64,000 nucleotides of DNA from a virus (IMGVR_UViG_3300014205_000206:20059-84058), one strand, 5' to 3'; shown: positions 3,601 to 55,035, counted from the stretch's first letter. The notes: generated from the letters alone by a model not told the origin. Numbers and translations are program-made.

Positions 3601-6600
3601 CACCCATAAATCCGCCGCCACCGCTGGATGAACTCCCGCCACTAATAGCCTTGGATGCGAGTGCAGCTTTGGCAATAGCCACAAGCATGGCAGACAGCCA
3701 CTTAGCTACAGCTTCAAGCATCGAGGCTTGCAGGTTCTTGCCTAGATTCTTGACGGCGTCTTTGTTACCTTCGCCAAGTTCAGTCAGGAACGTCTTTAGT
3801 CCACCCTCAAGCGCGCTCCACATGTCCTCCTTGAAGTCATGCGTGATCTTGGCCAAATCGACCTTAATCTTGGCAAGCGAGCTAGCCTTCAACTGCGCTT
3901 CGAACTCGATGACATCGTCTTTGCCAATCTGACCACTTCTTAGGGCATCGGCAATCTGCTTCTGGATGTTGAACGCCTCTAGAGCGCCCTGCCCACCCTT
4001 TAGGGCTACGGCGTACTTCTCCATCCACTCGGTTTCGTACTTCAAGTCATCGATAAGCTTGGTTGCAGATACATCCTGTTGCGACTTGGCCAATTCCTTG
4101 TTAGCGTCAGCTAGCTTCATAATGGCAAGCCACATCTCTGCGGTGATCTTCGCTCCAGGCTTGACGATGGCATTGTATGCTGCCTGATACGCAGCCACAT
4201 CCATCAACGCTTCAGACCCAGCATTCAGCGCGATGACGTATTGCTCGTTCTGGTCGATAGCGTTTTGGATAGCCGACGTATCTTCGTACAGCTTATTGGC
4301 TAGTTCAGTTTCGATGTTCGAATCGTACACAGCGGCGGCTTTGCGCTTCGTGGACTCGATATATCCGTCGTCAATTGTTACGCTGTTAGCCTTCGCCTTC
4401 GTAAGTATATCTTCGGTGATTGCAGCAATGCCGATGGCGCGAGTTTGCTCGTCTACGGCGTCTGCGCCGCTCTTGTACGCGCTTAGCATCTTGCTATTAG
4501 ATGCAAGTTGGTTGTCCATCTGGATGTTCAGCTTCGCCATCTCTTCGTTCGCTTGACGAAGACCGGGAGATAGCTCATCCATCAGGATGTTGGCACCGTT
4601 CTGTTTGATCTCGTTTAGGCGTTCTTGCGCTTCGGCTGAACCTTTGGCACCAAACTTACCAGCCTCATACAACTCGTTCGCCAGCGCCATGGCGTCGTCG
4701 AAGTTCTTTTGAGCCGTGTTGAACTCATCGTACTTCTTAAGCATCCTATCGATTTCTTTTTGATAGGCGTTGGCTGCGCTGGCGGATTCGCGCAACTCTT
4801 TTGCATCGCTTTTTGCAAGACCCGGAGTTGTCGCGTTCTGACGAGCTTTCAACGCATCAGCTTTTTGCCTTTCAACTTCAGCTAGCTGCTCTTTCAATCC
4901 ACCTAGTCGCTTAAACTCCCCCTTTTCAAAGTCTTGCTGGATCTGCTTAAGCGTTTCTTGATATGTCTTTTCCGCTTCAATAGCTCGCTTTGAAGAGGTA
5001 ACGACATCGTCCATCTCGCTCGTCATCCAATGGAATCGAGCGTTCGCTTTTTCCACCACCACAGCAAGTACACCAGCTTCTACTCGCAAGTCAGCTAGAG
5101 ACTTAGATCCGGTTTTCGAAACAGCCTCGATCTTTTCTAGGTTTGTAACGTCTAGTTCGATGCTTTCATCAACCTTGCCAGGCAACCTAGCCTTGCTTTT
5201 TTCTAGTTCTTTGATTAGATCGAGAACGTTTTTTAGGTCTTCTTTTGCTTTATCAAGCCCAAGCTTCGGAGCCAATCGTTCTTCTGGCGTTATCGGTTGG
5301 TCATTCCTTCCGGCCAATTTGTCTTGCAATGAACGAAGGATGTCGAATTGGGTCTTTACCTGATTCGTGTTTGCGATGATTCTGAGGATCGCTTCGTCAC
5401 TTTCCTTTTCTGACTTCTTGATTTGATCGTAAAGCAAGTGCGTTCCTTCAGCGATCAATGCAATGCCGATGGTGACGAGTCCTCCGATTGAACTCCAAAA
5501 CACTTTCGCAGCGGAAGCGGCATCCAACAATGCCACCTTGAATAGCTTCAGTTTGGCGATTGCTGACTCAAACCACAACACTACAGCCAACGCCAGCAGC
5601 GTCTTGATAGTTTCGATCAAAGCACCAAAGCTTGCAGTAACGGCAGCAACAAGCTGCGGCAAATGAATTGTTTGAGACGTGCTAACTAGAAAATCAAACC
5701 ATTCATTCTTTAGTCGGTTAAGCTCGGCGGATAGCAACTTCGCACCAGAAATAGAACCTGGACCGAACACTTCATGCAGCTTGGCAGCGAGCTTCGGTAG
5801 CAAGTCTTCCGAGAGAACTCTACCTTGCTCAAGGTTCTTTGCAAGTTCCAACTGTGTCCATCCCATCGCTTCAGCAGCTAGACGGAAAGCTCCGGGGATA
5901 CGCTCGGCAAACTGACCACGCAACTCTTCGCTTTGTACTGTACCCTTAGAAATCATCTGCTGCAAAGCTAGGATAGCTCCCTCGGCAACTTCCGAGGATA
6001 GACCCATAGCTGTCGTGGCTTCGGAAACGGACACGAAAATGTCGCGTACCTGCGCAGACGACAAAGAAGTATTCTGAGCAGCCACATCGAACTTAGCAAA
6101 CGAAACACCGACGCTCTGGATATCAAGACCAAGCTTTTGTGCGTTGTCTCGAAGGAACGCCATCTTGTCTGCGGCCTCGCCTGCACTTCCAGACGAAATA
6201 GCAAACGTGTTAGTCATACGGTCGAACGACTGACGAGCGCCAACCATCTCGTTCTTCAACTTGTTCAGTGCAACAGTAGCCAGCGTTCCGATGGCAGTTT
6301 GGAACGCAGTAAGGCTATACGTAGCCTTGTCTGTCGATGGCTTAATATTTTGCGTAGCCTTTTCCTGCGCCTTGAGTTCCTTTTCTAGCTTGTTGACAGC
6401 ATCGCGTGCCGCATACTCTTGGCGAGTGAACTGATCGATAGCCTGACCAGCCTTGCTGGTCGCGTCTGTACCGGCACGCATCTGGCGCGTCTCGATTTCG
6501 TGGGCAAGATTGAACGCAGCAATGCCGGATCGACCGCCATTGTATGCAGCGGCGAGCCCTTGAAGTCTAGCGACTTCGGCTTGAATGCTGGCCACGAATG

Positions 6601-7303
6601 CATCGGTCTTCTGCTTCGCGAGATCCATCGCCGCGTTGTCGGCTAGGGCTGCGGCGTGGGCGGCTTCGAATGCAGCCGACTTCTGCCTTATAGACTTTTC
6701 TGCGGCTGAAATGGCGGCGGTCAAATCCCAATGCTTAGCGGCGTCGGCAGCTACAGCTTGTCCTTCTTGGCTTTGCAGGGTTCTGCCAGCTTCAAGAAGC
6801 GCGTTCTTGACGAACATCTTCTTATTGTAGGCATCTACGGCACCTTCACCACCTTGATAGGCGGCATATAGACCCTTAAGCGCCTGAACCTCTTGATACA
6901 AAGCTACTGCTGACTGGTCCTGAACCGTTCTCTTTGCGATCTTCGCAGACAAGGCGGAACGCTCAGCAGCTTCCTGTGCCCTGAGCGCCTGTTCGCTTGC
7001 TTTTACTGCCGCTACTAGAGCGATGTTTTGGCGAACCGATTCGGCAAGCTCTTTGCCTAGTTTGTTCTTAGTATCTAGGTTGTGCCTTTCGAGCGCATCC
7101 AAAACCGCCATTTCGGTGTTGTACTTATCGACTGCGGCTCTTCCGACTGCATAAGCGGAGTTTAGATTACCAAGGCTTACGTTGATTTTCTTGATCGCTT
7201 CTGTGGCCTCGGCTGCCCCACCAGCGACAGCCTTGGCCCCCGAGACGGCACCAGAAGGATCGATGTTTACCTTGAGGGTAATCTCTTTGGCTGCTGCCAT
7301 CAC
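611..7303 (-). CDS. Tail tape measure protein (2230 aa)
   Basis: Ala-rich helical protein with tape-measure domain (ALQQMISKGTVQSEELRGQFAERIPGA), downstream of tail chaperones. Confidence 0.95.
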   Translation of the reverse strand: MMAAAKEITLKVNIDPSGAVSGAKAVAGGAAEATEAIKKINVSLGNLNSAYAVGRAAVDKYNTEMAVLDALERHNLDTKNKLGKELAESVRQNIALVAAVKASEQALRAQEAAERSALSAKIAKRTVQDQSAVALYQEVQALKGLYAAYQGGEGAVDAYNKKMFVKNALLEAGRTLQSQEGQAVAADAAKHWDLTAAISAAEKSIRQKSAAFEAAHAAALADNAAMDLAKQKTDAFVASIQAEVARLQGLAAAYNGGRSGIAAFNLAHEIETRQMRAGTDATSKAGQAIDQFTRQEYAARDAVNKLEKELKAQEKATQNIKPSTDKATYSLTAFQTAIGTLATVALNKLKNEMVGARQSFDRMTNTFAISSGSAGEAADKMAFLRDNAQKLGLDIQSVGVSFAKFDVAAQNTSLSSAQVRDIFVSVSEATTAMGLSSEVAEGAILALQQMISKGTVQSEELRGQFAERIPGAFRLAAEAMGWTQLELAKNLEQGRVLSEDLLPKLAAKLHEVFGPGSISGAKLLSAELNRLKNEWFDFLVSTSQTIHLPQLVAAVTASFGALIETIKTLLALAVVLWFESAIAKLKLFKVALLDAASAAKVFWSSIGGLVTIGIALIAEGTHLLYDQIKKSEKESDEAILRIIANTNQVKTQFDILRSLQDKLAGRNDQPITPEERLAPKLGLDKAKEDLKNVLDLIKELEKSKARLPGKVDESIELDVTNLEKIEAVSKTGSKSLADLRVEAGVLAVVVEKANARFHWMTSEMDDVVTSSKRAIEAEKTYQETLKQIQQDFEKGEFKRLGGLKEQLAEVERQKADALKARQNATTPGLAKSDAKELRESASAANAYQKEIDRMLKKYDEFNTAQKNFDDAMALANELYEAGKFGAKGSAEAQERLNEIKQNGANILMDELSPGLRQANEEMAKLNIQMDNQLASNSKMLSAYKSGADAVDEQTRAIGIAAITEDILTKAKANSVTIDDGYIESTKRKAAAVYDSNIETELANKLYEDTSAIQNAIDQNEQYVIALNAGSEALMDVAAYQAAYNAIVKPGAKITAEMWLAIMKLADANKELAKSQQDVSATKLIDDLKYETEWMEKYAVALKGGQGALEAFNIQKQIADALRSGQIGKDDVIEFEAQLKASSLAKIKVDLAKITHDFKEDMWSALEGGLKTFLTELGEGNKDAVKNLGKNLQASMLEAVAKWLSAMLVAIAKAALASKAISGGSSSSGGGGFMGALKGLFGGGGAGGGAGISSGAMALGAWVAVAAAAVAILKHQVDRANAVRYQTTVSYNSGSDTMFSSGKLNETGAKIADAFKSLLDEVQSATGALLDGAHRAAIAVRNDKKGFRALVDGVVIGTFKTMDEAIVAAMKKLFSAENLKNSLNPIVQQVIDNFDASKGPDEFAAAIKAVTQIMNDLSGLTDIEIQLRDLPAQASQLASQLHAMGVSMGDAAVVAEQWTVQQFASIRDQITGHEASAAEQMAERQRQAAMFNAQLAMSKANMELAKAELEHKIAIFGTEVEWVNRKYEFDLIKMRMRRDLIDADMSMSNTEVDIASWRIGARNELASQDMEIARNEFEVRRAAGGASLAALQIQLDAINQAMAALDAIKPIDMAEIHLPNPNGGRGGNTGPNIIDEFWSFWKQKQRDAMSEVAGAIYDINEAYDAQVKAARRLGMEEELEAARLAELARLRADFLESYRSENLTDYQRAVEELNAAFDDQALLDEYIGQEEELARVRHEAMARLREDLLDSFGSPMESVRDNLTGLIKRFIDLDKANSQLGEDFRNGTITAEEYADALAHSEQVQREFNDQMAVNLLNMAVYFTDALGDSEKSAEIRARLAEFEYNMKLAEFELTLETAYAQHWINQELYEYLLDILNEARRNPPDFTVPTGDTGGGGDTSGSNPLEDTLQALLRALDRLRNILQTYTDFLKDLQTSELSPYSISDQYDMAQAEYERLLALAQAGDLNAMEQLPAAAQSYLDLASQMFGTASAGYSDIFNTINEDMTAIMGSIQDILDQVPSQYQPIEQRLDTIAEILDNMYLLWMNFDTTGSGTGGGGGFTPPGTPTQTPRTLQEVFEAYNLDWSQLNGTELGDLTSIVQSILEDSQVSISEMSDFVSTMENMLGMTPGSMTAAQIAALRTWLFQQVGNNANGPENQGAAANNQASQSSAVGGTPSISTNNHAARMNRNLELIAELTAKGLRESSSDRNRKPKLSYAGYTGGRNSSVRGS

Positions 7304-17011: not shown

Positions 17012-18310
17012 TTAGACTCCGAGCATTCCTACAGTTGAACCGGTCGTTCCCATAGGCTTTCCAAGTGGGAACATTTCGTGAACCATGTAGCCAAGTGCGT
17101 CCGTAACGTGATCGAGTCCGGTCGTTTTGTCAGGCTGACTCGTTCCTTCTTTGTAGGTCAACCCTTCAAGTCCTTTGAGTAGATTGACGCATCTTGGATG
17201 CAAAAACAGCCTGCTTCTGCCAGCCGCGTTCATGCAGAGTGTATTCACTTCGTTGATTCTGTCAACGACCGCAGGGTGCGTTTTCCCGGCAACTACCGAA
17301 AATCCAGCCGCCCTAAGCAACGAAAAGTCAGTTTGACCAACAACGGCGGATGTCTTTCTTTGGTTTCCGCTTGGGTCTGGATAGACGATAATCGGACGAC
17401 GCTCAGCCCTGCCGTCGCCACGAGTTGCTGCCCTACCAAGCTTCCACCTGCGCAAGAACACATTGATCGCTTCGATCATCTCGGAAGTAGACGAGTTTTC
17501 TAGCACGATTTCGTCGTGGATGTGCAGTTCATCGCCAGCCCTAGACGCCAGCACGGCGGTCATCGGGTCGACGTTGAAGTCCATTCCAATGTGCAGAGTA
17601 GATCCAAGATCAGCAATGTCGTGGGACGAGTTGCGCTGGCGTTCGAACCCAGTGTAGACGCGGCCTTCTGGGGCTTCGAAACAAGCTTCGTATTCTTGTC
17701 GAAACTTCGCTGGCGTCATATCTCGACGCGCAGCCGCGATCTCAGCATCAGGAACTAGACCACCCTGCAACGTGGTGAATTGGAACGTTGCCCACCCTTC
17801 GTGTCTACGTGCTTGCGCTGTCGTAAAAAGGTCGTAGAAGTGGCCTAGACCCTTCGGTGTACCCGTGAACAAAGCTTCGCCTTGTCGATCCGACAGCGCA
17901 GGTCGGATGACTTCGTTCCAAGTTGCCGGGTCAATGTCTTTGTATTCGTCGAAAACGACGAAATCTAGACCGGGTCCTCGCAACGAGTCGGGGTTGTCTG
18001 CACCTCGAAGCGAGATTCTAGAATTGTAGGGTTTAATGGTGAGCGTGAGGCTGGTTTCGTCCTTCTTGGCGATCATGTCCCGAGGGACAGTTCTCATCAA
18101 GTCTCGCCAGATAACGTCCTTAGCCTGTCGATACGTGGGCGCGATGAACCACACGTTCTTGTCTATGCCAGTTTGCGCGGCTCGGCACAGCTCGGCAATG
18201 TCCAAGTACGTCTTTCCGAATCGACGGCCAGCTACAAGGATTCTGAAACGAGAAGGATCTCGCCATACTTGAAACTGCGGAGCGGAAAGTGGGGTATTGT
18301 TTACCTCCAC
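17012..18310 (-). CDS. terL: Terminase large subunit
   Basis: VAGRRFGKT Walker A, LRGPGLDFVVFDE Walker B, TGTPKG, GMDFNVDPM nuclease motif, DHVTDALGY; likely GTG start at 18310. Confidence 0.95.
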   Translation of the reverse strand: MEVNNTPLSAPQFQVWRDPSRFRILVAGRRFGKTYLDIAELCRAAQTGIDKNVWFIAPTYRQAKDVIWRDLMRTVPRDMIAKKDETSLTLTIKPYNSRISLRGADNPDSLRGPGLDFVVFDEYKDIDPATWNEVIRPALSDRQGEALFTGTPKGLGHFYDLFTTAQARRHEGWATFQFTTLQGGLVPDAEIAAARRDMTPAKFRQEYEACFEAPEGRVYTGFERQRNSSHDIADLGSTLHIGMDFNVDPMTAVLASRAGDELHIHDEIVLENSSTSEMIEAINVFLRRWKLGRAATRGDGRAERRPIIVYPDPSGNQRKTSAVVGQTDFSLLRAAGFSVVAGKTHPAVVDRINEVNTLCMNAAGRSRLFLHPRCVNLLKGLEGLTYKEGTSQPDKTTGLDHVTDALGYMVHEMFPLGKPMGTTGSTVGMLGV

Positions 18311-18317
18311 TTTTTCA

Positions 18318-18707
18318 TCAAGAGGCTGGCTCACCGGGTCCCAATAGCGCGGGCTCGTTCGGCACAATGACCGCCAAGTCCCCGCGCTTCGGCATGAACG
18401 GAATCGTGATCGATCCATTCAGGATGATGTCAGACTTGTCTCCGTACCCACGGTCGCGCATCTGGCGCTCTGCGAAGAACTTCAGCGCCCACGGTTCCCC
18501 TTTTTGGAGAGCCTCGATGATTTTCAGTTCAACGAAGTCTTTGGTTGCTTCTTTTTCGTTGAAAGCTGCATCTTTCAGGGTGGGAACTGCCTTAATCCTG
18601 TTCTGCAATTCCTTCGGATCGCACCCAAGCTTCTTGGACGCGATGTAAATCATTCCTTTCGAAGCCTTGATGGCATCAAGGATCTCTTTGTCAGAAATCA
18701 AAAGCAT
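18318..18707 (-). CDS. Terminase small subunit
   Basis: N-terminal HTH (GMIYIASKKLGCD), WALKFFAER..RDRGYG; directly upstream of TerL. Confidence 0.75.
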   Translation of the reverse strand: MLLISDKEILDAIKASKGMIYIASKKLGCDPKELQNRIKAVPTLKDAAFNEKEATKDFVELKIIEALQKGEPWALKFFAERQMRDRGYGDKSDIILNGSITIPFMPKRGDLAVIVPNEPALLGPGEPAS

Positions 18708-23191: not shown

Positions 23192-24894
23192 ACGAACCGA
23201 CGACAGTACGAGTTGAACAACCGGTCTACGGAGCGCAACAACTCGTCGCTCGAGCTCCGTACGAATTCCGGTTCAAGCTGGCGGACATACCTGGGGCCAA
23301 ATGGAGCGGCACAAAAAAGGCTTGGACGTATCCTGTCTCACCTACAACCGCCGTCTATCTGGCCGGATTGCTGGGAGACGCGGCATTTCAGGCGGATGCA
23401 GCCGCTATGGCTCTTTTGAATTCAGGGCGATCCAACCATCAGGTCAGCGCGTCCAAGGTGGCGGCGTCCGCCAAGGCTGGTGACCTTGAACCGCTACCGT
23501 TTGAAGTCGTCACGCAGCCATGGGCTCACCAACTCGGCATGGTCCGTTTCACTGAGCCCCTACCAGCCGCGCTATGGAACGTCGGACTTGGCGCAGGCAA
23601 GTCCAGAGCCGCATTGGACTTGATCCGACTTCGAAAGCACGCCAAAACGCTCATTGTAGCTCCACTTTCTGTCGTTCCGTCGTGGGCCGAGCAAGTACGA
23701 CGCCATGCTCCGGGTGCAGTTCGCATCGTTACCCTCAACGAGGGGTCAACCGCATCTAGGGCCAAGAAAGCAGCCGAAGCGTGGGCTCGTGGAACACCCG
23801 AAATGCCGTCAATCGTCGTTACGAACTACGCTTGTGCGTACACACTGGTTTTCTTGCACGCCATGTCGGCGGCGAAACTTGATTTTATGGTCTGCGATGA
23901 GGTGCATGCTATTAAAGCACCTCAAGGGAAGCAGAGCATCGCTCTTTCACGCGCTGCGGTAGGAATTCCGTACCGTTTGGGGCTTTCTGGCACTCCGTTG
24001 CCGAACAGCCCGATGGATGGATACGGCGTATTCCGATTCCTAGACCCCGGAGTGTTTGGAAAGTCGTACGTTGCATTTAGAACCCGTTTCGCCAGAATGG
24101 GAGGTTTTCAGGGCAAACAAGTGATGGGATACCAAAATATCGACGAATTTTCTCGTCGAATCGCCCCATTTACCTATGAAGTGGACCGTTCTGTGCTTGA
24201 TTTGCCTCCATTTACGCATATCGAACGAGTTTTTACGCTCAATCCGGAGGCTGCTGCGTTCTACAATGAACTCAAGAACGATCTAATCTCCACCGTCAAT
24301 GAAGGTGTCGTCACAGCGACCAACGCACTCACCAAACTGCTCCGATTGTCGCAAGTAGCGTCCGGACATGTCGGAATGGACATCGACCCGGCTGATTTTG
24401 ACGAAAACGGCACCGCTCCAGAGCGCAAAATCACCGAAATCCACACCCAGAAGCAGCAACTACTACGTGAAGTGCTAGAAGAGATCGATCCAAAAGAGCC
24501 GGTCGTGATCTTCACTCGCTTTAAGCACGACATGACCCAAGTTCGAACCGCATGTGAAGGGCTAGGCGAAGTTGCCGAGCTTTCCGGATCGGTCAAAGAG
24601 CTTGAAAAGTGGCAAAAACCTGATGGACCGAGGTTCCTTGCTGTACAAATTCAATCTGGAGCCGAAGGAATCGACCTTACTAGGTCGGCGTACTCGGTGT
24701 ATTTTTCGAAAGATTTTTCTAGGAGCCGCTACATACAATCCTTGGCGCGTTCACACCGTCCGGGGCAACACAAAGCGGTCACCTACGTCCATCTAATCGC
24801 AGAAAACACCGTTGACAGGTCAATTATGAAAGCGATGGAGAAAAAAGGTAAGCTAGTCGATGAAGTTCTAGATGAAATCAGAAAATGGTCCTGA
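23188..24894 (+). CDS. SNF2-family helicase with N-terminal HARP-like domain
   Basis: VGLGAGKS, DEVHAIK, LSGTPLPNS, QSGAEGIDL, RSHRPGQ; N-terminal IPGAKWSGTKKAWTYP. Confidence 0.9.
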   Translation: MNEPTTVRVEQPVYGAQQLVARAPYEFRFKLADIPGAKWSGTKKAWTYPVSPTTAVYLAGLLGDAAFQADAAAMALLNSGRSNHQVSASKVAASAKAGDLEPLPFEVVTQPWAHQLGMVRFTEPLPAALWNVGLGAGKSRAALDLIRLRKHAKTLIVAPLSVVPSWAEQVRRHAPGAVRIVTLNEGSTASRAKKAAEAWARGTPEMPSIVVTNYACAYTLVFLHAMSAAKLDFMVCDEVHAIKAPQGKQSIALSRAAVGIPYRLGLSGTPLPNSPMDGYGVFRFLDPGVFGKSYVAFRTRFARMGGFQGKQVMGYQNIDEFSRRIAPFTYEVDRSVLDLPPFTHIERVFTLNPEAAAFYNELKNDLISTVNEGVVTATNALTKLLRLSQVASGHVGMDIDPADFDENGTAPERKITEIHTQKQQLLREVLEEIDPKEPVVIFTRFKHDMTQVRTACEGLGEVAELSGSVKELEKWQKPDGPRFLAVQIQSGAEGIDLTRSAYSVYFSKDFSRSRYIQSLARSHRPGQHKAVTYVHLIAENTVDRSIMKAMEKKGKLVDEVLDEIRKWS

Positions 24895-25676
24895 AATCAG
24901 GCATCTACACGATTCGTAACGTCGTCAACGGGAAGCGATACGTTGGATCAGCCAAAAATCTGACTAGTAGATGGAATGCACACAGAAACGGACTCAAACT
25001 AGGGAAGCACGAAAACTCGCATTTGCAAAAATCATGGAACAAACACGGAGAACCGGCTTTTTTATTTGAAGTTATACTTTTTTGCCAACCCGAACACCTG
25101 ATTTTCTACGAGCAAATATGCATCGATACGTTAAAACCTAAGTACAACATATGCATGACCGCTGGATCTTTGCTTGGTTATAAGCAAACAGAAGAAGTTA
25201 AGGCCAAGATGAGCGAGGCGAGAAAAGGCTGGAATCCAAGCGAATCGGTTAGAGCTAACATGAGTATCGCAGCAAAAGGGAGAAAATTTAGCAACGAAAC
25301 GAAAGCAAAAATAAAAGCTTCTTTGGTCAATTATTGGTCAAATCAACCGGACAGGAGGAAGCAAGTAAGTCAAATGTTTAAGGGTAAAAATCAAAGCGAG
25401 GAAGCTAAAGCAAAAAGGAGTGCGGCAATGAAAGGAAAGAAGCTTAGCGAAGAAACAAAATCTAAGATTAGCGCAGCAAACATGGGAAAGAAGCCAAGCG
25501 AAGAAACTAGAGCTAAGATGAGTGCAGCAAAGAATGGCCATAATCCTAGTAAAGAAACTAGGGCTAAGCTTAGCGCAGCAGGCCGAAAACGCAAGTTTAG
25601 TGAAGAAAGCAGGTCTAAAATAAGCGCAGCAATGTTCGCCAGGTGGGCAAAAAAGAAAGAACTAGCAGCCCAATGA
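24885..25676 (+). CDS. GIY-YIG homing endonuclease with NUMOD3 repeats
   Basis: GIYTIRNVVNGKRYVGSA; repeated SEETKAKMSAA motifs; AT-richer than flanks. Confidence 0.9.
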   Translation: MVLKSGIYTIRNVVNGKRYVGSAKNLTSRWNAHRNGLKLGKHENSHLQKSWNKHGEPAFLFEVILFCQPEHLIFYEQICIDTLKPKYNICMTAGSLLGYKQTEEVKAKMSEARKGWNPSESVRANMSIAAKGRKFSNETKAKIKASLVNYWSNQPDRRKQVSQMFKGKNQSEEAKAKRSAAMKGKKLSEETKSKISAANMGKKPSEETRAKMSAAKNGHNPSKETRAKLSAAGRKRKFSEESRSKISAAMFARWAKKKELAAQ

Positions 25677-25912: not shown

Positions 25913-26443
25913 ATGGAAAGCGTAATCGGAAACTGGTTTCTCACCTACACCGGAAAGAAAGTAGACCCTTTTCGGATGACAGCGGACGATGTGTGCATCG
26001 AGGATATCGCCCACTCATTGTCCCAAATATGCCGTTTCAACGGCCACTGCTGCGCGTTTTACAGCGTAGCGCAGCATAGTATCTACGTTGCATCCATCCT
26101 GCCGCCCGAGTTGAAATTCGTCGGATTGATGCACGATGCCACGGAGGCTTACTGTGGCGACATGATCCGACCCATCAAAGTGTCCATGCCTACCTACAAA
26201 AGTCTTGAATACGTCATCTGGCTAGCTATCGCGCAAAAGTATGACCTGCCAACCGAGCTTCCCAAGGAAGTCAAAGCCGCAGATAACTCCATGCTGATGA
26301 CCGAGCGCCGCGACCTGCTCAAGTGGACACCCGATGACTGGAACGTTCCGGAGCAACCGCAGGATTTTTTCGTCTACCCGAAACCGTCAAGGCAAGCAGA
26401 AGCCAACTTCTTGTCGTTCTTCCATAGGTTGCACAAGCCATGA
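25913..26443 (+). CDS. HD-domain phosphohydrolase (YfdR/5'-deoxynucleotidase-like)
   Basis: IEDIAHSLSQICRFNGH, YSVAQHS, LMHDATEAYCGD. Confidence 0.9.
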   Translation: MESVIGNWFLTYTGKKVDPFRMTADDVCIEDIAHSLSQICRFNGHCCAFYSVAQHSIYVASILPPELKFVGLMHDATEAYCGDMIRPIKVSMPTYKSLEYVIWLAIAQKYDLPTELPKEVKAADNSMLMTERRDLLKWTPDDWNVPEQPQDFFVYPKPSRQAEANFLSFFHRLHKP

Positions 26444-28087: not shown

Positions 28088-28410
28088 CCAACGAAAGAAC
28101 CGTACCGAACAGTCCACATCACTACCACACCTACGTGCTCGCATTCGATGAGTTCCGAAACATGTGGCGCTTGAGCGCCAACGGAGTCATCGTGCCGCTC
28201 AACATCCTGTCGCAAGATCACGAAGAACGCTACGTGAAGCTCGGGCAAATCCGAGGCAAGGAAGCCCGCGAGCTGGCGATCCATGTGGCGCGTACTATGC
28301 TAGAGCACACCTACCAGAGCTTCGATCAGGCATCCAAACTAGTTGTGCTAGACGAAAACGGAGAAGTCAACTATACTTTCATTGTGCCGACAACTGCGGA
28401 ACAATACTAA
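28084..28410 (+). CDS. Hypothetical protein
   Basis: ATGA overlap; 108 aa. Confidence 0.6.
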   Translation: MTNERTVPNSPHHYHTYVLAFDEFRNMWRLSANGVIVPLNILSQDHEERYVKLGQIRGKEARELAIHVARTMLEHTYQSFDQASKLVVLDENGEVNYTFIVPTTAEQY

Positions 28411-28448
28411 GGTCATTTGGCTTTCCAGTTTTACGGAGAAATCGACTC

Positions 28449-29024
28449 TTGACCGGCGTTTACGCGATCCTGAACAAAAAAACGGGCCAGCAATATATTG
28501 GCTCAGCCGTGAGCATTAAACGACGATGGCACGCTCACAAATGCACGCTCCGCAAGGGCAAACATAAGAACCGCCAGCTTCAAGCTGCTTGGAATCTGGA
28601 CGGCGAGGCTGCGTTCGAATTCAGGATCATCACGCTTTGTAGCAAGTGGGAAGCGCTGGTGTGGGAGCAGCAAGCCATGGAGACACAGGACTGCTCCTAC
28701 AACATCGCTCCTACTGCCGGGACCACGGCTGGGGTGTCCCTAACTACCGAGACTATCGCCAAGATGAAGGCTGCAAAGGCTAACGTCAGCGATGTCACAC
28801 GGGAGCGAATCAGTCAGTCGATGATGGGGCACGTTACTAGTGAAGAAACCAAGCGCAAGATTAGCCAAGCTACCAAGGGTCGGAAACTGAGCCCAGAGCA
28901 AGTTGCCAAGCGACGCGGGAAGAAAGCTTCTATTGCAACTCGCGAGAAAATACGTCAAGCTCGGCACAAGACGTATCTAACCAAAAACAGACTGTTCGTA
29001 TCACCTACCAAGGAGAGCACATGA
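28449..29024 (+). CDS. Second GIY-YIG homing endonuclease with NUMOD3 repeats
   Basis: GVYAILNKKTGQQYIGSA; SEETKRKISQA; likely TTG start 28449 after GGAG. Confidence 0.85.
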   Translation: MTGVYAILNKKTGQQYIGSAVSIKRRWHAHKCTLRKGKHKNRQLQAAWNLDGEAAFEFRIITLCSKWEALVWEQQAMETQDCSYNIAPTAGTTAGVSLTTETIAKMKAAKANVSDVTRERISQSMMGHVTSEETKRKISQATKGRKLSPEQVAKRRGKKASIATREKIRQARHKTYLTKNRLFVSPTKEST

Positions 29025-42588: not shown

Positions 42589-42761
42589 GCAAAAAATGGT
42601 ACATCAGAGTACTGTTCGCCTGCATTGCGTTCCAGCTTGCCGTCATGGCGTTTCTGCCGGAGTGCAACGAAGCGGCGATGGTTAACCTTGCTGTATTCCT
42701 CGTCGCGGCGGGTTGCTGTGCGCTCAACTGGATTCACGAAAACAGGAAGAGCGCAAAGTGA
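42585..42761 (+). CDS. Small two-TM membrane protein (58 aa; not in ORF track)
   Basis: MSKKWYIRVLFACIAFQLAVMAFL...LAVFLVAAGCCALNW; overlaps both neighbours. Confidence 0.6.
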   Translation: MSKKWYIRVLFACIAFQLAVMAFLPECNEAAMVNLAVFLVAAGCCALNWIHENRKSAK

Positions 42762-44155
42762 GCCGCATCAGCATCCCACACACGCTTGCATCCATCCTGT
42801 CCGTTCCGAAGCTTCGGAATAGCTACCTCGTCGGCGGCTGCGTCCGCGACGCAGTGATGGGGCTCACTCCGAAGGACTTCGACGTTGAAGTCTTCGGCTT
42901 GGAGTACGACGAGCTGGCAGCGATCCTCGACAACTTTGGTCGAGTGGACATTGTCGGCAAGAGCTTCGGAGTCCTGAAGCTGACCAAGAACGGCGAGACG
43001 TACGACTTCAACCTACCGCGCATCGACTCGAAAGTTGGCGACACGCATCGCGACTTCAAAGTGCGCGTCGATCACGGGCTGACGCTTCGGCAGGCGGCTT
43101 CGAGGCGTGACTTCACTATCAACGCGCTGGCGTATGATCCGAGGACCGAGGAAGTCATCGACAACTTCGGCGGACTCCACGACATCGAGCACAAGAATCT
43201 TCGCCACATTGGTGAGTCGTTCGCGGACGATCCGCTTCGCGTCATGCGAGGGATGCAGTTCTGCGGGCGCTTCGGACTGAACGTTACCTTCGATACGATG
43301 CTTTTGTGTCGCAAGATCAAAGGGACGTTCGACGCGATCTCAGGAGAGCGCCTGTGGATGGAGTGGTACAAATGGGCAGCAATGTCCACGAAGCCGTCAG
43401 ACGGGCTGTGGTTTCTGGAAGCAGTCGAGTGGATCGAGCATTTCCCGATCTTGAAAAACATGGTCGGGTGTGAGCAAGATCCGGAGTGGCACCCAGAAGG
43501 TGATGTGATGACGCACACTCATCATTGCTGTGACTCGCTTGTTGAGTCGGGCGAATGGTTCGTCCGCGACAAGGACGAACGAGCTGTGCTGATGATGGCT
43601 GTGCTTCTTCACGACTGCGGCAAGCATCTGGTTACGGAGTGGGTGATGCGAGACGGAGTCAATCGGATCGTTTCTCCTAATCACGACATGATAGGAGGAT
43701 CGCTGGCTGGCAACTTCCTTAGCAAGATGAAAGCGCCGGAAGAGCTACGAAAGCAAGTGAAGGCGCTGGTTTCCTGCCACATGGCGCACTTGAACCAGCC
43801 GTCGAAGCGTACGGTAAGGCGGCTGGCCGAGCGGCTGCATCCGGCGACCATCGAGCAGCTCATGGTGGTGATCCAGGCGGACCACGCGGGTCGGCCTCCG
43901 CTGCCGAAGGATATGCCAGCGAACGCGCTGGAAATCAAGCGGCTTGCGAAGGAACTGAACGTCGAAGCGTCGGCACCGAAGCCGCTAGTGCTTGGTCGGC
44001 ATCTGATCGAGCTGGGCTTGCGGCCGGGTCCGGATTTCAAGCGGTATCTGACGGCGCTTTTCGAGATGCAGCTCGACGGTGATTTCGACAACCTCGAAGA
44101 TGGTAAGTTGCTGTTGAAAATCGCGGTGGAAGAGGAGGGGTTGAATGAGCAATAA
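42758..44155 (+). CDS. cca: Class II tRNA nucleotidyltransferase (CCA-adding) with HD domain
   Basis: YLVGGCVRD..KDFDV, RRDFTINALA, DDPLR, HPEGDVMTH, LLHDCGK; GTG start 42758. Confidence 0.9.
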   Translation: MSRISIPHTLASILSVPKLRNSYLVGGCVRDAVMGLTPKDFDVEVFGLEYDELAAILDNFGRVDIVGKSFGVLKLTKNGETYDFNLPRIDSKVGDTHRDFKVRVDHGLTLRQAASRRDFTINALAYDPRTEEVIDNFGGLHDIEHKNLRHIGESFADDPLRVMRGMQFCGRFGLNVTFDTMLLCRKIKGTFDAISGERLWMEWYKWAAMSTKPSDGLWFLEAVEWIEHFPILKNMVGCEQDPEWHPEGDVMTHTHHCCDSLVESGEWFVRDKDERAVLMMAVLLHDCGKHLVTEWVMRDGVNRIVSPNHDMIGGSLAGNFLSKMKAPEELRKQVKALVSCHMAHLNQPSKRTVRRLAERLHPATIEQLMVVIQADHAGRPPLPKDMPANALEIKRLAKELNVEASAPKPLVLGRHLIELGLRPGPDFKRYLTALFEMQLDGDFDNLEDGKLLLKIAVEEEGLNEQ

Positions 44156-48273: not shown

Positions 48274-50940
48274 ATGGCAAAGGTTGCAGCAAAAGCCAAA
48301 AAGCCAGTTGGGCCAACACCTGCCCAATTGGCAGCAGCGAAGCTGGCTGCTGGCAGCGGAGGGAATGTCCTCGAAGAGCTGATGAAGATCGTGGACAAAG
48401 AGCAGCAAGCCGAAATTGCTGTCCAGAAAGCAAAAGCAGAAAAGGCGTACCTGACCGACACTGGTGTGATGTTTCAGTACGCAGCTTCATACTGCTCGAA
48501 AGGAGAAATTTCGTACAAGTCGTACGCGCTTATCAAGGTTGAACTGGATAAGCTGAAAATTTACCTTCAGCATTTCTACAACGCTGAAGGGTCGGAGTCA
48601 TTGAAGTCTTTGGCTTCGAAGTTGGCGAAGGAGTGCAAAACTACTTTCTTCGCGTCTGACTATTACAACAAAGTAGGAGTTCCGTATCTGGAATTCGCAG
48701 CCGCCAAGTTCAACGAATTGGTTGATCTCGTTGCAAAGCCTGGTGGTTTGGATGGAAAAGCCACCACGGTAAATATCAACGCATTCGAAGCAAAGTCGAT
48801 TATGGGTACGGTTCTCAACTTGTACTCCGAAGGAAAGGCGAACAAAGCAGTAGAAAACGCTATTTCTGCAAATACTCAACCGAATGTAGAAGTAGTTGCC
48901 AAGGAAATGCCGAAAGAGAAGTTGAATGTATTTCCAGACCTTGCGGACAATCCGGCAACGCAAAAGCGGCACGGAATCGTTGCAATCTCTTCTCTGGAAG
49001 AAGTCCACAGAAGGTCGTTGCACAACGCTGTGCTAACGGCAGAAATCATCTGCACCTTGTCTCCTAAGCGGGGAGGGTTTGCAGAAAACAAAGCGTGGAT
49101 GGAACACAAGAAAGTAGTTCCGGATGAGTTCTTGCGGCTGTTCTTCAGGCCGTGCCCGAAGGTTCCTAGACACGGTTTTGTTGACTCAAGGGTGTGCGTC
49201 AACTGGGAGGAAGTCGAAGCGATCTACAACGAAACGATTGCAGCCGATCCGGAATCGGAAGTTATCGTCATGTACGAATTGGAAGCTCAAGCTAGCGCCG
49301 TAGCCACTTCGAATATGATCGTTGTTGGTCCGAGTAACGATGGAGCTACGGCTGGCAAGAACTCAATTGTCTACGATATCAAGTCGGCTGAAATTCCAAT
49401 TAGGATTCGAAGCGCTGCAAAGCTTACTAATGACCAAGAAGGCTACGTCGAAGCGGTATTCGACGGGAAGTGGAGCTACTTGGTGCAGCTTCGAGGCGGA
49501 CCCAAGGTTGGGTCGAATGCGAAGCGAGTATGTGCCAAGACTGTTGAGTCCGTCCGTCAAGTAGTTACTGCGGAAGGAGATGGACTCGAATGGGAATCCA
49601 AGATGCTCAGTCTTGGCAAATCGCACGAAGCCGCATCGGCTGTGGTGTGGCATCCGGGCGGAAGCATGCTGTCGCACTACGCAGTACATGCGCTGCTCAA
49701 CGGACTGGCCATATCATTCGAAGACGATCCACCGAAGATTGGGGATACGTTCGAAGGTGAGAAGCCTAACATGGAGTGGGATAGCGAGTCGTTCGCTCGC
49801 GGCGTCGTCATGGCGCTGTTGGACTCGAAAGCCGGAAGGTTGTCGGACGAGAAAGACCTTCGAGAAGCATTCGTGTTCGCGGCGACAGGAGTTCACTCGG
49901 CCACAAAGTTGATTAAGGGTGACTCGGCTGAGCTCCTTGGTGGCGCTTGCGCCACCCTGATGCTGCTATCGGCTGCGGCGTGTTGCGGAGAGTCGAGGCA
50001 TAACACGGCAGTCAGGAGCTTGTCAGGAATCAGCTCTGACAGGCACAAGGTTTTCGTCAGGGCGCTTTCGGACTACATGGGAGCAAGGGCGTTGCTGCGC
50101 CTTTCGCTGGAGTCATTTGCTGCCGATACGTGGGGATCTTCCTACGGGGGGCAGAAGTGGGCGATCTGCGCCGCAATGTGTATCGACCTTGAGCGTGTGC
50201 TGTTCGATATTATCAAGGGAGAAGGGAGCGTTGCCGAGGCCGTACAGTTGTCGCATCGGCTGCTAAATGCAGTTCACAATGGCGGAAAGCTGCTGAACAA
50301 GTTTGGTGACCCTTCGATTCTGGACTATGCAGCCCAAGGATCTCGGTCGTTCGCCGTGCACTCTGCGTTTCGTTGGTACGCCATCTCGCATGGCGTCAAA
50401 TCGCTTCCGCAAACGAAGATCTCCGAGATGAGAGCACGCATCATCTCTTCCGGCGATTTCGACAAGGGAGCATTCGAGTATTGGGATACCTCGTCTGGAA
50501 CTTTCGTCTTCACTGCGAAGTATGCGGATGGACCGAAGTACGACATGGTTGATGGACAAGCCCAAGTTCGGATCGTAGACGTATCGAGCAATCGCGTCAA
50601 GGTTCAGTATCACTTCAGAATTCAGCGACAAGGAGCGGGTTTGTCGGTTTCGAAGTCGAATTCTGATTTTTCGAAGTACAAGAACATCAGCAAGCATGAC
50701 GTATCTGACGATCAAGTGAATGAAAGCGGGTACGTTTCTTTGACTGTGTACAACAAAGAACTCGTTGATGTAATGTCCGCTTACGCAGAAAAGGTCGGAG
50801 GACTTGAGATGGCCACTTCAATGGCGTCAAGTTCAAGTGTGCTGTACGTCAAGGCGACGGCTGTAAAGCCGATTGGGTCGAATCCGAAGCATGGAGCGAT
50901 CATCTACTTTGGCGATACCGGAGTGGAGGTAAAGCCGTGA
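48274..50940 (+). CDS. PPDK/PEP-synthase-like ATP-grasp plus phospho-His swivel protein with novel C-terminal domain (888 aa)
   Basis: FFRPCP..PRHGFVDS, VEAVFDGKWSYLVQLRGGP (E...QxR), HPGGSMLSHYAVHA; no PEP-binding TIM-barrel motifs; GGAGG RBS. Confidence 0.75.
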   Translation: MAKVAAKAKKPVGPTPAQLAAAKLAAGSGGNVLEELMKIVDKEQQAEIAVQKAKAEKAYLTDTGVMFQYAASYCSKGEISYKSYALIKVELDKLKIYLQHFYNAEGSESLKSLASKLAKECKTTFFASDYYNKVGVPYLEFAAAKFNELVDLVAKPGGLDGKATTVNINAFEAKSIMGTVLNLYSEGKANKAVENAISANTQPNVEVVAKEMPKEKLNVFPDLADNPATQKRHGIVAISSLEEVHRRSLHNAVLTAEIICTLSPKRGGFAENKAWMEHKKVVPDEFLRLFFRPCPKVPRHGFVDSRVCVNWEEVEAIYNETIAADPESEVIVMYELEAQASAVATSNMIVVGPSNDGATAGKNSIVYDIKSAEIPIRIRSAAKLTNDQEGYVEAVFDGKWSYLVQLRGGPKVGSNAKRVCAKTVESVRQVVTAEGDGLEWESKMLSLGKSHEAASAVVWHPGGSMLSHYAVHALLNGLAISFEDDPPKIGDTFEGEKPNMEWDSESFARGVVMALLDSKAGRLSDEKDLREAFVFAATGVHSATKLIKGDSAELLGGACATLMLLSAAACCGESRHNTAVRSLSGISSDRHKVFVRALSDYMGARALLRLSLESFAADTWGSSYGGQKWAICAAMCIDLERVLFDIIKGEGSVAEAVQLSHRLLNAVHNGGKLLNKFGDPSILDYAAQGSRSFAVHSAFRWYAISHGVKSLPQTKISEMRARIISSGDFDKGAFEYWDTSSGTFVFTAKYADGPKYDMVDGQAQVRIVDVSSNRVKVQYHFRIQRQGAGLSVSKSNSDFSKYKNISKHDVSDDQVNESGYVSLTVYNKELVDVMSAYAEKVGGLEMATSMASSSSVLYVKATAVKPIGSNPKHGAIIYFGDTGVEVKP

Positions 50941-52259
50941 AGGGTAATTTCGAATGCGTAAGCGAATCGACTCCGCAGTTCGTGCGCCGATGCTCAAGCT
51001 TCCAAGGATCATATAGCGGCTTCGGTAAAGTCCACGCAACCAGAAACGGCAAGTCTACGATCTGCGGCAAGTTTATGGAAAACGAATGGATGCTGTACGA
51101 CGAACTTCTTAAGGCGCTTGATGCTCAAGGCTCGTACTCTAGCCTTCCGGTGTTCTGTGAAGTGTGTCGTACTACCAAAAACGCAGTCAATCCAAGCACA
51201 GTACAGGAGGCTGAAGTGGGAAAAAAGAAAACTGACCATCAAAAGGACCTGTTGCCAATGTGGGATGGAAAAGCGAAGGGGACGACTTCTGGTTCTGGAT
51301 ATATGTCCGGGGGCGGAAGCTACGGGCAAGCGGGGTTCGTGTACGGAGCGAACACTTGCGTCCACAACGGAACCAAGGTGATGTGCATACTTGAGCGAGG
51401 CATCAACCTTGCCGGGTCGAAGGGTGCTGATGTCGAGTACGAAGCTGCGGACGTTGTCATCGACTGCGCCGGAATCACGAAGAAGGATTTCAACAATCCT
51501 GTCGGTAGCCTGCTGTCTGGAACAACGAGGCTTGTTGATGCCGTAAAAGAGTCGATCACGCACCCCGACACTTTGTTCATCGACTGGCCGGACATGAAGA
51601 CTCCGAAAGTTGGCCCGAAGTTTTGGGTCATGCTGTTGAAGGCGATTCCCGACAATTCGAGGGTGGTTGTCTGCTGCATGGGAAGCCACGGACGGACGGG
51701 CACGGCGATGGCTTGCTTGATCGCCGCGAACGGATTGACGCTCGGGAAAGAAAATGTCCCGGACGCTGTTGACATTATCAAGTTCGTGCGAAAGAATCAT
51801 TGTTCAAAGGCGGTTGAAACGCAGTCTCAGGAGGATTACGTAGCCAAGATCGTCGCAAACCTCAAAGACCCAGGCAATCCGGAAGAAGTGAAGCGCCAGT
51901 GGGCGCTGAACGACGCCGCCTTCAAGAAGGCCGAGGTTGCAACGATTGTTTACCCAAAAGCCGAAACGCAGGGAAAGCAGGAAAGCAACGCAACAAGCAA
52001 AAACAGCGAAACCAAGGATGCAAGTCAGGTCACAAGTCCGGCGGACGAAAGCGGTGAAGACATCATGTTCGTCGATGCAGCCGGAAACGTCGTCAGCGAA
52101 AGCGGAGACGTTGTTTTCGAAAAGGGTAAGCTGAGCGCCGAAGAGCGCGAGTGGTCGAAAGAACTGCCGACTTGGTCTGAGTACATTCAGCAGCGGTACG
52201 AGACGGGCAAGGAAGTCGCTTCGAACAACAACCATGAAGGAGGTAAGAATGGGAACTGA
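50937..52259 (+). CDS. CX5R protein-tyrosine/dual-specificity phosphatase-like protein
   Basis: IDWPDMKTP (general-acid loop), VCCMGSHGRTGT, VRKNHCSKAVETQSQ. Confidence 0.85.
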   Translation: MKGNFECVSESTPQFVRRCSSFQGSYSGFGKVHATRNGKSTICGKFMENEWMLYDELLKALDAQGSYSSLPVFCEVCRTTKNAVNPSTVQEAEVGKKKTDHQKDLLPMWDGKAKGTTSGSGYMSGGGSYGQAGFVYGANTCVHNGTKVMCILERGINLAGSKGADVEYEAADVVIDCAGITKKDFNNPVGSLLSGTTRLVDAVKESITHPDTLFIDWPDMKTPKVGPKFWVMLLKAIPDNSRVVVCCMGSHGRTGTAMACLIAANGLTLGKENVPDAVDIIKFVRKNHCSKAVETQSQEDYVAKIVANLKDPGNPEEVKRQWALNDAAFKKAEVATIVYPKAETQGKQESNATSKNSETKDASQVTSPADESGEDIMFVDAAGNVVSESGDVVFEKGKLSAEEREWSKELPTWSEYIQQRYETGKEVASNNNHEGGKNGN

Positions 52260-54259: not shown

Positions 54260-54602
54260 TAACAGGCAGGGCAGGCATGGCAAAGGAGCCGCCTTGACGG
54301 CTGTGCAGAAATATGGCGCTATCTATGGCCAAGCGAAAGGTCGTCAAGGCGACTCCTACGCCATCGTCACCAAAGAACTTCGGAATGGTTACCAGCCGGT
54401 AACGTTGGAAGAGGTTCAGTCACAGATCCGTAAGTTTCTTCTGTACGCAGAAGAAAACGAAGACCAAACGTTCTTGGTCACTAAGGTTGGATGCGGATTG
54501 GCTGGCTTCGACGAAGTTGACATCAAAAAAGAGTTCGTCGGAGCGCCGTCCAACTGCATCCTTCCAGATGGGTGGAGGGAGCAAAATGCCATGGATCGCT
54601 AA
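54240..54602 (+). CDS. Macrodomain-like phage protein (A1S_2505-like)
   Basis: IFVFGSNRQGRHGKGAA, SYAIVTK, FLVTKVGCGLAGF. Confidence 0.75.
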   Translation: MIFVFGSNRQGRHGKGAALTAVQKYGAIYGQAKGRQGDSYAIVTKELRNGYQPVTLEEVQSQIRKFLLYAEENEDQTFLVTKVGCGLAGFDEVDIKKEFVGAPSNCILPDGWREQNAMDR

Positions 54603-55035
54603 CGTAAGCGAAACGCACGCTTCGGGCATCCTTAATCCGAGCGACATGGTTTGCATATCGATTACGAATCCCGGAAGAATTGCATCTTTGCCGGACTTCA
54701 AAGATTTGATGCGAGTCCAGTTTCACGACTATGACGGGGAGCGCGAGTATCCATCGGACGCCGTTCTGTTTGGCGTACATGAGTCAATTCGGATCGCGTC
54801 TTTTGCAAAATGGCACAGGCATTATCAGTGCAACATACTAGTCCACTGCGCTGCCGGCGTCTCCAGAAGCGGAGCCGTAGTCGAAGCGTTGCTGGAAGCG
54901 TTTCCGGAGTACGAAGATGCCGGTTTGATTCGGCATCCGAATGGTCGAGTCAAGTCGCTAATGAAGCGTGCGCTCGGATTGGTTCCAATCGGAGCGGAAA
55001 GGGAAGCGGATGGGCCGTCCGAAAAAGCCGGTTGA
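54586..55035 (+). CDS. Second CX5R phosphatase-like protein
   Basis: CISIT...QFHD...ILVHCAAGVSRSGAV...PN; start ATG 54586 after GGAGG. Confidence 0.85.
   Translation: MPWIANVSETHASGILNPSDMVCISITNPGRIASLPDFKDLMRVQFHDYDGEREYPSDAVLFGVHESIRIASFAKWHRHYQCNILVHCAAGVSRSGAVVEALLEAFPEYEDAGLIRHPNGRVKSLMKRALGLVPIGAEREADGPSEKAG

Follow-up and report, generated by a model that had tools for sequence, protein, structure and literature searches.

The window analysed in this report is a 64,000-nucleotide stretch of viral DNA (IMGVR_UViG_3300014205_000206:20059-84058), comprising bases 20059-84058 of an 84,058-bp IMG/VR virus record with a CheckV completeness estimate of 84%. Two adjacent plus-strand genes in this window encode an 888-aa dikinase-like protein, P0001, and a 440-aa predicted cysteine phosphatase, P0002. 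Their open reading frames (ORFs) share a GTGA overlap, where the GTG start of P0002 overlaps the TGA stop of P0001 in ...GCCGTGAAGG... An initial annotation, made from the sequence alone, had proposed that the pair writes and erases a phosphate on a non-pyruvate acceptor. The motifs and coordinates that it quoted all translate as it had given them, including the GTGA overlap, the histidine codon, the C-MGSHG-R loop and the WPD loop. In P0001, positions 49141-49188 translate to FFRPCPKVPRHGFVDS and positions 49441-49503 to GYVEAVFDGKWSYLVQLRGGP, codon 49675-49677 encodes His468 inside PGGSMLSHYAVH, and the motifs GESRH, SYGGQKW and HNGGKLLNK begin at residues 572, 623 and 668, respectively.

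The P0001 protein family

An exhaustive HMMER search recovered at least 939 clusters (50% identity) homologous to P0001 at E<=1e-3, and 512 at E<=1e-30. Conservation was assessed in alignments of 32, 93 and 148 homologues with 25-80% identity. Residues R292, P295, H300, G301, S305, E329, G357, T359, E393, Q405, R407 and G409 in the ATP-grasp part of the protein, and H468, H472, E573, R575, R590, G625, G626, W629, H668, N669 and K676 in its later part, are invariant or nearly so. Because the P0001 motifs hold invariant columns across homologues, they are family signatures and not chance resemblances. The core common to the family comprises residues ~288-700, with the conserved part beginning near residue 229, and the extensions at both ends vary. 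The roughly 230 extra N-terminal residues remarked on in the initial annotation correspond to an extension (residues 1-224) that is found only in the closest homologues, P0003-P0009. Beyond the features described there, P0001 has a C-terminal domain (residues ~721-888) with conserved motifs of its own. Most of the 148 aligned members carry an 'HVQY' strand and an S[LM][AS]GSxxxY motif in this domain, which in P0001 take the form of a 'VQY' strand and SMASSSSVLY (columns ~2680-3040 of family alignment A2), and short members such as P0070, P0073 and P0081 lack the domain altogether. The domain might offer a binding loop or serve as a phospho-acceptor.

P0001 has no Pfam match at E<=1 and no match in PHROG, NCBIfam or PADLOC, and the extensions of 54 long family members contained no Pfam domain. 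A word-based search for shorter (split) members of the family returned none; the IMG/VR scan and a later search did yield a small lineage of proteins that consist of the helical domain only, described below.

The ATP-grasp domain

An AlphaFold2 model of P0001 residues 225-720, built with 93 homologues, has a predicted local distance difference test score (pLDDT) of 95.3 and a predicted template modelling score (pTM) of 0.92, and falls into three parts. The first (model residues 1-190) is a compact ATP-grasp domain of ~190 residues that contains the motifs TQKxxG (K231), FFRPCPxxPRHGFVDS, NDGAT and YVEAV...VQLRGGP. When this model was run with VIA-align against 48,161 PDB representatives, the top match was rifampin phosphotransferase (RPH; 5hv1_A, Z 9.9, root-mean-square deviation 3.1, 168 residues aligned, model residues 1-187), followed by the isolated RPH ATP-binding domain (5hv6_B, Z 8.6), and then by synapsin (Z 8.2), D-Ala-D-Ala ligases (~7) and maize pyruvate phosphate dikinase (PPDK; 5.8). 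Foldseek placed RPH entries at ranks 1-4 and phosphoenolpyruvate (PEP) synthase at rank 5, with PPDK at rank 14 amid ordinary ATP-grasp ligases. In the BFVD viral library, the sole significant match was gp139 of Bacillus phage G (E 2.6e-5, 328 columns), which is also among the tblastn matches of a phage PPDK_N+PEP-utilizers protein. The invariant residues K231, R292/R299, E393, Q405 and R407 lie at the positions of the GGK lysine, the VRS arginine and the E, Q and R of the DxEF...LQxR motif of dikinases, a mapping that low-stringency hhalign backs loosely. The model and its structural matches support the assignment of the first domain of P0001 to ATP-grasp domains of the PPDK_N structural type, with the dikinases as its nearest group, in agreement with the dikinase-type ATP-grasp of the initial annotation.

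The putative histidine-carrying domain

Residues ~417-502 form a beta-alpha-beta unit in the AlphaFold2 model, in which a GGSxxSH loop opens a helix (element order beta-alpha-beta-[GG..SH]-alpha-beta), an order compatible with a PEP-utilizer domain. His468 and His472 are invariant in 148/148 sequences, within GGSxxSHYAVHA. In weak hhalign matches, His468 coincides with the catalytic histidine of each template used, namely PpsA from E. coli (E 0.0068), a set of six PEP-utilizer domains from E. coli (E 0.0036 over 67 columns), the 'PPDK' of Vibrio phage J26 (E 0.038) and a set of five kinases from phages (E 0.021). Each of the four comparisons gave a single best match, and the register was identical in all; the templates overlap, with PpsA among the six E. 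coli domains and J26 among the five phage kinases, and three of the four comparisons include PpsA. In the ESM Atlas features for residues 412-505, three PF00391 clusters were the top named matches at 0.89, just below the tool's line of 0.9, and serve as a lead only. The PF00391 profile itself matched nothing in the whole phage. The profile and language-model signals, weak as they are, make it likely but not proven that this region is a PEP-utilizer swivel domain. The histidine swivel of the initial annotation is supported in position and register, at that strength.

The helical third domain and its stand-alone form

The region that follows the putative swivel, residues ~503-720, is all-helical in the AlphaFold2 model (pLDDT 94.5). 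The PEP/pyruvate TIM barrel (PF02896) was sought in P0001 and is not there; the helical model, which has no Pfam match, stands in its place, as the initial annotation had anticipated in describing an unrelated helical domain. The nine residues from E573 to K676 listed above are invariant in this domain, and H576 is nearly so. The best Foldseek match of the helical domain in the PDB had an E value of 0.33, the best VIA-align score (Z 6.9) was one that helical bundles can reach as noise, and the ESM Atlas gave no usable lead. Four-helix bundles resembling, as we read the entries, HEPN domains or the C-terminal domain of kanamycin nucleotidyltransferase made up ~9/50 VIA-align rows at Z 5.2-6.7, which is inside helical-bundle noise, and no claim is made of them. 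Kinship with ferritin-like diiron proteins was also considered on the basis of a few matches at E ~0.6, and the single ExxH (E573/H576) was treated as chance.

The helical domain also occurs on its own. In a complete 84.9-kb phage (G001), a protein of 276 aa consists of nothing but the helical domain, with the motifs AEARH, GYGGQSW and HNNGLMLNKF, and the whole genome gave no ATP-grasp, PF00391 or PF01326 match. The gene for this protein (L073:5596-6426, +) is directly followed by a phosphatase gene (L073:6402-7241, +). Two more clusters of ~280-aa helical-only proteins were found at 58-60% identity, and their existence indicates a maintained form and not a wreck.

The phosphatase partner

In P0002, the WPD loop occupies residues 217-219 (51585-51593) and the P-loop CMGSHGR residues 247-253 (51675-51695), with Cys247 and Arg253 at its two ends; the P-loop is followed by VR...C..AVE...Q..Y, which includes the Q loop. 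Residues 212-306 pass the Pfam cut-offs of both PTP-SAK (31.3 bits, cut-off 27) and Y_phosphatase (28.0 bits, cut-off 20.9). The sole PHROG match is phrog_17568 (E 4.8e-14), and orthologues of P0002 likewise match this family only. The consensus of 63 distinct partner proteins reads dWpD ... C.GGHGRTGt ... vR...C..avE...Q..Yi. In classical protein tyrosine phosphatases (PTPs), the WPD aspartate and the Q-loop glutamine position water for hydrolysis. Since the nucleophile, the arginine, the general acid and the Q-loop glutamine are all kept, P0002 is expected to be an active hydrolase. By these sequence features it is an intact cysteine phosphatase, and the CX5R/WPD phosphatase of the initial annotation is upheld. 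The CxGGHGRTG P-loop and the WPD loop of the family resemble those of classical protein phosphatases. The Cys-rich N-terminal ~135 residues of P0002 and its acidic tail are lineage-specific.

Linkage and distribution of the gene pair

Linkage of the kinase and CX5R genes, set beforehand as the test of the initial annotation, was assessed in 69 viral or metagenomic loci (8 from an exact-protein look-up, 60 from IMG/VR and the window itself) and in 4 loci from bacterial genomes. A locus was scored as linked where a gene with a CxxGxGR[ST]G P-loop lay within two genes of the dikinase-like gene. Such a phosphatase gene was present in 68/69 viral or metagenomic loci and in 4/4 bacterial-genome loci, and the only locus without it has a contig edge right after the dikinase gene. 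In 66 loci the phosphatase is the next gene downstream, and the two genes often overlap by 4 nt. Elsewhere, one small gene intervenes (two loci), the phosphatase is immediately upstream (three near-identical loci), or it is divergent and duplicated (one locus). Identity of the large protein across linked loci falls to ~24%. All-against-all clustering of the ORFs of these loci gave a dikinase family in 69 and a phosphatase family in 68, and the next genuine family in 11; what looked like a third shared family (39 loci) was a shadow ORF, read antisense within the conserved stretch of the dikinase gene. In none of the 73 loci was a kinase seen fused to a phosphatase. For two phage genes, the bond between the dikinase-like gene and the cysteine phosphatase is close to the tightest possible.

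One phage genome of 108.6 kb (IMGVR_UViG_3300005077_000007; loci L029 and L061) carries two diverged dikinase-like copies that face opposite ways and are ~9 kb apart. A phosphatase gene lies downstream of one copy, and two tandem phosphatase genes are placed divergently upstream of the other.

Only 4 matches were found among 185,579 bacterial and archaeal species genomes, in a scan seeded with one peptide pattern, and the cassette-bearing phage genomes are 20-450 kb in size and otherwise unrelated. The two genes make up an accessory cassette, complete in itself, that moves among phages with no relation to one another. Its mobility and its restriction to phages favour, as we infer, a role in host takeover or counter-defence over one in core metabolism.

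Relatives in cultured phages

Vibrio phage vB_VneS_J26 was published with a 'pyruvate phosphate dikinase' auxiliary metabolic gene and a tyrosine phosphatase two genes downstream (PMC12038007). The 691-aa J26 protein matches PPDK_N (E 1e-45) and PEP-utilizers (E 2e-19) and has no other Pfam match, so that a TIM-barrel domain is undetected. It also matches phrog_18609 ('kinase') at 1245 bits; P0001 has no PHROG match. Some 26 cultured phages are common to the two tblastn listings, and all of these have the phosphatase on the kinase strand, ~0.5-2 kb downstream of the kinase. The carriers include Vibrio phages SIO-2 and vB_VneS_J26, Stenotrophomonas phages DLP3/DLP5/Summit, Rhodobacter phage RcZahn and Rhizobium phage RHph_Y1_11. 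The phosphatases of J26, SIO-2, DLP5, RcZahn and RHph_Y1_11 match phrog_17568 at E values from 2e-78 to 9e-25. These SIO-2-like phages resemble the window in having an ATP-grasp and histidine protein without a detected TIM barrel, followed by a phrog_17568 phosphatase. They differ in that the kinase is a canonical PPDK_N+PEP-utilizers protein, 1-3 small genes lie between it and the phosphatase, and the phosphatase is a bare domain of ~160-200 aa. In this canonical branch, the domain after the swivel shows poor conservation and does not align to the helical domain of P0001. The cassette of the window is a very divergent branch of this broader phage kinase/phosphatase module, which no paper that we found treats as a system, and neither of its proteins is tested there.

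That these proteins are genuine PPDK or PEP synthase enzymes, serving as auxiliary metabolic genes, is how the cultured-phage relatives have been annotated and, as genes of carbon metabolism, discussed in print (PMC12038007), and this explanation is effectively excluded. A TIM-barrel domain is undetected in both P0001 and the J26 protein, and the third domain of P0001 is helical. Against the PPDK equivalog model, the J26 protein scores just 461 of 843 bits, far below the cut-off, and covers only positions 2-523 of 865. The initial annotation had warned that a PPDK auxiliary-metabolic label would be wrong, and the cultured relatives, labelled PPDK yet without a detected TIM barrel, support the warning. 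The phrog_17568 family carries the label 'thymidylate synthase', and its members are PTP-SAK/DSP phosphatases of ~160 aa (the J26 member matches PTP-SAK at E 7e-10). The same label appears in the RefSeq records of SIO-2 (NC_016567.1 VPEG_00063) and DLP5 (NC_042082.1 gp080) and in several GenBank phage records. Both the 'PPDK' auxiliary-metabolic and the 'thymidylate synthase' labels are probably wrong in cultured phages.

The ATP-grasp and histidine unit and the helical domain each occur separately with the phosphatase, and the P0001 family fuses both. Taken together, the cultured phages with kinase and phosphatase but no helical domain, and the helical-only proteins encoded beside a phosphatase, make the phosphatase the constant element. 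This arrangement would suit a direct phosphorelay, in which the phosphohistidine is handed to the phosphatase or hydrolysed by it, either as a cysteinyl-phosphate relay to a final target or as a reset of the kinase, with the helical domain serving in docking or regulation. The phosphatase is the sole constant partner, both of the ATP-grasp and histidine proteins in ~26 cultured phages and of the helical-only proteins; the gene overlap suggests stoichiometric co-production, and IIB domains of the phosphotransferase system (PTS) with a PTP-like fold are established carriers of cysteinyl phosphate. The WPD aspartate and Q-loop glutamine for positioning water are, however, conserved, the invariant Glu, Arg, His, Lys and Trp residues of the helical domain resemble a catalytic or ligand pocket more than a docking surface, and no kinase-phosphatase fusion occurs in the 73 loci. 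We consider such a relay unlikely.

Genomic setting

The source of the window is a tailed phage, in which minus-strand structural and packaging genes extend to ~21.6 kb (large terminase, 17012-18418) and a long plus-strand block of replication and nucleotide-metabolism genes lies beyond. The cassette sits inside this block, together with genes for an SNF2-type helicase, two homing endonucleases, a T5-like deoxyribonucleoside monophosphate (dNMP) phosphatase, a CCA-adding tRNA nucleotidyltransferase, a ParB/DUF6551 protein, a UvrD helicase and a primase. The features of the gene pair are listed in Table 1.

Table 1. Features of the P0001/P0002 gene pair, in window coordinates
Feature	Position	Strand	Basis or remark
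Leader, intergenic, 5' of P0001 gene	48158..48273	+	Two short inverted repeats and AGGAGG; read directly
P0001 gene, 888-aa dikinase-like protein	48274..50940	+	AGGAGG 6 nt before ATG
P0001 N-terminal extension, residues 1-224	48274..48945	+	Ala/Lys-rich, lineage-specific
P0001 ATP-grasp nucleotide-binding domain, residues ~225-416	48946..49521	+	AlphaFold2 model, VIA-align, Foldseek
P0001 swivel-type phosphohistidine-carrier domain (putative), residues ~417-502	49522..49779	+	hhalign, ESM Atlas
P0001 all-helical third domain, residues ~503-720	49780..50433	+	AlphaFold2 model, conservation; presumed acceptor site
P0001 C-terminal domain, residues ~721-888	50434..50937	+	Column conservation and motif listing
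P0002 gene, 440-aa phosphatase (predicted)	50937..52259	+	Pfam, PHROG; GTG start overlaps P0001 TGA stop
P0002 Cys-phosphatase catalytic domain, residues ~137-312	51345..51872	+	Family consensus

The inverted repeats of the 116-nt leader are GGGAGGA-TTTT-CCTCCC and CGCCCT...AGGGCG, and neither was called a terminator by the consensus scan. Consensus scans for promoters and terminators around the gene pair, leader included, gave nothing above the shuffled expectation.

The position of the cassette amid replication and nucleotide-metabolism genes would suit an activating kinase of a substitution or condensation pathway, in which the phosphate serves as a leaving group, as in prodiginine synthesis by PigC/RedH or when 5-hydroxymethyl-pyrimidines are phosphorylated during the hypermodification of phage DNA, and the product is a modified metabolite or nucleic-acid base. 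PigC and RedH share the superfamily of ATP-grasp and swivel proteins and are among the NCBIfam matches of the cultured-phage cousin. No transferase, glycosylase or hydroxymethylase is conserved beside the pair, however, and it is not obvious what a hydrolytic phosphatase would do in a pathway of this kind, which makes this explanation very unlikely.

Several other genes of the window and of related loci were recorded. A second small gene resembling cysteine phosphatases (182 aa; 54487-55035, +) lies 2.2 kb downstream of the cassette and matches DSPc in Pfam at E 8.5e-7 (below cut-off) and phrog_5614 at E 4.6e-14. In a related phage, a DSPc gene (L001:3169-3630) is located directly upstream of the tRNA nucleotidyltransferase gene. 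The CCA-adding tRNA nucleotidyltransferase of the window (480 aa; 42713-44155, +) has an HD-like C-terminal part and matches PolyA_pol (E 1e-23) and phrog_2244 (E 4.5e-73). The surroundings of the cassette at one further locus, L008, include an AAA_33 kinase, an RNA ligase and a metallophosphatase. There are hints of an RNA-repair neighbourhood for the cassette in some phages, though not as a setting conserved from locus to locus. The T5-like deoxyribonucleoside-5'-monophosphate phosphatase gene, which matches phrog_318 at E 1e-69, has a GIY-YIG-type homing endonuclease gene on either side (24885-25676, 25913-26443 and 28164-29024, + for the three genes). Within the structural block is a very large ORF of 2230 aa (611-7303, -).

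Proposed mechanism and comparison with known systems

The explanation that we favour, with somewhat more confidence than doubt, is that P0001 is a very divergent histidine-swivel dikinase that delivers phosphate to a non-pyruvate acceptor, and that P0002 acts in the same pathway. The ATP-grasp domain, with K231, R292/R299, E393, Q405 and R407, would bind Mg-ATP and load His468 on the small mobile domain. By analogy with known dikinases, the gamma-phosphate would be lost and the beta-phosphate kept on His468. The mobile domain would then swing to the helical domain, where the cluster of E573, R575, R590, W629, H668, N669, K676 and H576 may bind a non-pyruvate acceptor, which would take the phosphate. 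P0002, with Cys247, Arg253, Asp219 and the Q loop, would be produced from the same transcript, with probable translational coupling, and would serve the same pathway. It might remove the phosphate added by P0001, as in the plant pair of glucan-water dikinase (GWD) and SEX4, or a different phosphate of the same substrate. As a writer and eraser on a non-pyruvate acceptor, the pair is partly supported overall, with its structure and linkage supported.

The order of the domains in P0001 (ATP-grasp, histidine domain, third domain) is the order found in PPDK and PEP synthase. P0001 shares with RPH, PEP synthase and PPDK the ATP-grasp subtype, a small histidine domain (a probable carrier) with a GG..SH..A...IP signature, and, on the proposed mechanism, the logic of nucleotide site, carrier and acceptor. 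It departs from them in that the arginine after the catalytic histidine (AxxAR) is replaced and a second histidine, His472, is invariant; moreover, its third domain is helical and matches neither the TIM barrel nor the rifampin-binding domain, an extra C-terminal domain is present, and a cysteine phosphatase is its partner. In the reversible phosphorylation of starch, GWD and phosphoglucan-water dikinase (PWD) act with SEX4, LSF2 and laforin, so that a dikinase and a CX5R phosphatase work on one substrate. To our knowledge, GWD/SEX4 is the only well-known cycle of a dikinase and a CX5R phosphatase. It differs from the cassette in being eukaryotic, in having unlinked genes, and in having carbohydrate-binding modules, none of which is detectable here; nothing in the cassette points to a glucan.

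A precedent for loss of the barrel is VadK (Rv1127c) of Mycobacterium tuberculosis, a histidine kinase derived from PPDK by truncation, with the TIM barrel missing, which phosphorylates itself and binds metabolic enzymes (PMC13400623). VadK resembles P0001 in having an ATP-grasp and histidine module and no TIM barrel, and its use lies outside pyruvate metabolism. Unlike P0001, it is cellular and has neither a helical acceptor domain nor a phosphatase partner, and P0001 does not match the VadK-type NCBIfam model. P0001 might, on this precedent, be a regulatory protein kinase that autophosphorylates on histidine and modifies or binds host proteins, while P0002 separately strips phosphotyrosine or phosphoarginine from host proteins, the two being joint takeover factors. 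The J26 protein does match NF004531, the short 'PPDK' model of the VadK type, along most of the protein (residues 18-531) and below the cut-off. The likeness of the P-loop and WPD loop to those of classical protein phosphatases would fit such a role, as would the C-terminal Ser/Tyr motif as a possible phospho-acceptor. Independent activities would, however, leave the near-obligate adjacency of the two genes in very different phages unexplained, as well as the conserved cluster of the helical domain, and no result indicates a protein target. We regard a regulatory kinase of this kind as decidedly unlikely.

Several observations weigh against a histidine-swivel dikinase with a helical acceptor domain. 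The PPDK_N (PF01326) and PEP-utilizers (PF00391) hidden Markov models do not detect P0001, and no PDB chain was matched in searches with the single P0001 sequence or with the 148-sequence profile. The hhalign probabilities for the matches of the histidine domain are low (1-9%), and Foldseek gave nothing with a combined model of the swivel and helical domains, the swivel not having been searched on its own. The helical domain, found beside the phosphatase without the ATP-grasp and histidine module, may not rely on a histidine donor in cis, and in the cultured relatives it may be the phosphatase rather than the helical domain that works with the histidine module. If one operon supplied both a kinase and a phosphatase for a single site, the outcome would be a futile cycle unless the two are kept apart in time or space. 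The helical-only phage and the cultured phages without the helical domain complicate a simple writer/eraser picture.

A bolder scheme, which we hold to be doubtful, treats the system as three interchangeable parts, namely an ATP-grasp and histidine donor, a helical acceptor or adaptor, and a PTP-fold hub. These would form a reversible relay, possibly running from His468 to the phosphatase cysteine in the manner of the PTS, onto a host macromolecule or an immune signal. If true, such a relay would act as a reversible phage switch in host takeover or counter-defence, and neither bacteria nor their viruses have a described counterpart.

Significance

P0001 represents a large, unnamed family that is almost confined to phages and has no model in Pfam, PHROG, NCBIfam or PADLOC. 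The cultured relatives, Vibrio phages SIO-2 and J26, Stenotrophomonas phage DLP5 and Rhodobacter phage RcZahn, offer a direct experimental route to its function. Histidine-swivel dikinases are rare; their known acceptors are pyruvate, rifampin, starch and phenols, and each has revealed new biology. A phage dikinase with a new acceptor domain would add another acceptor to that list.

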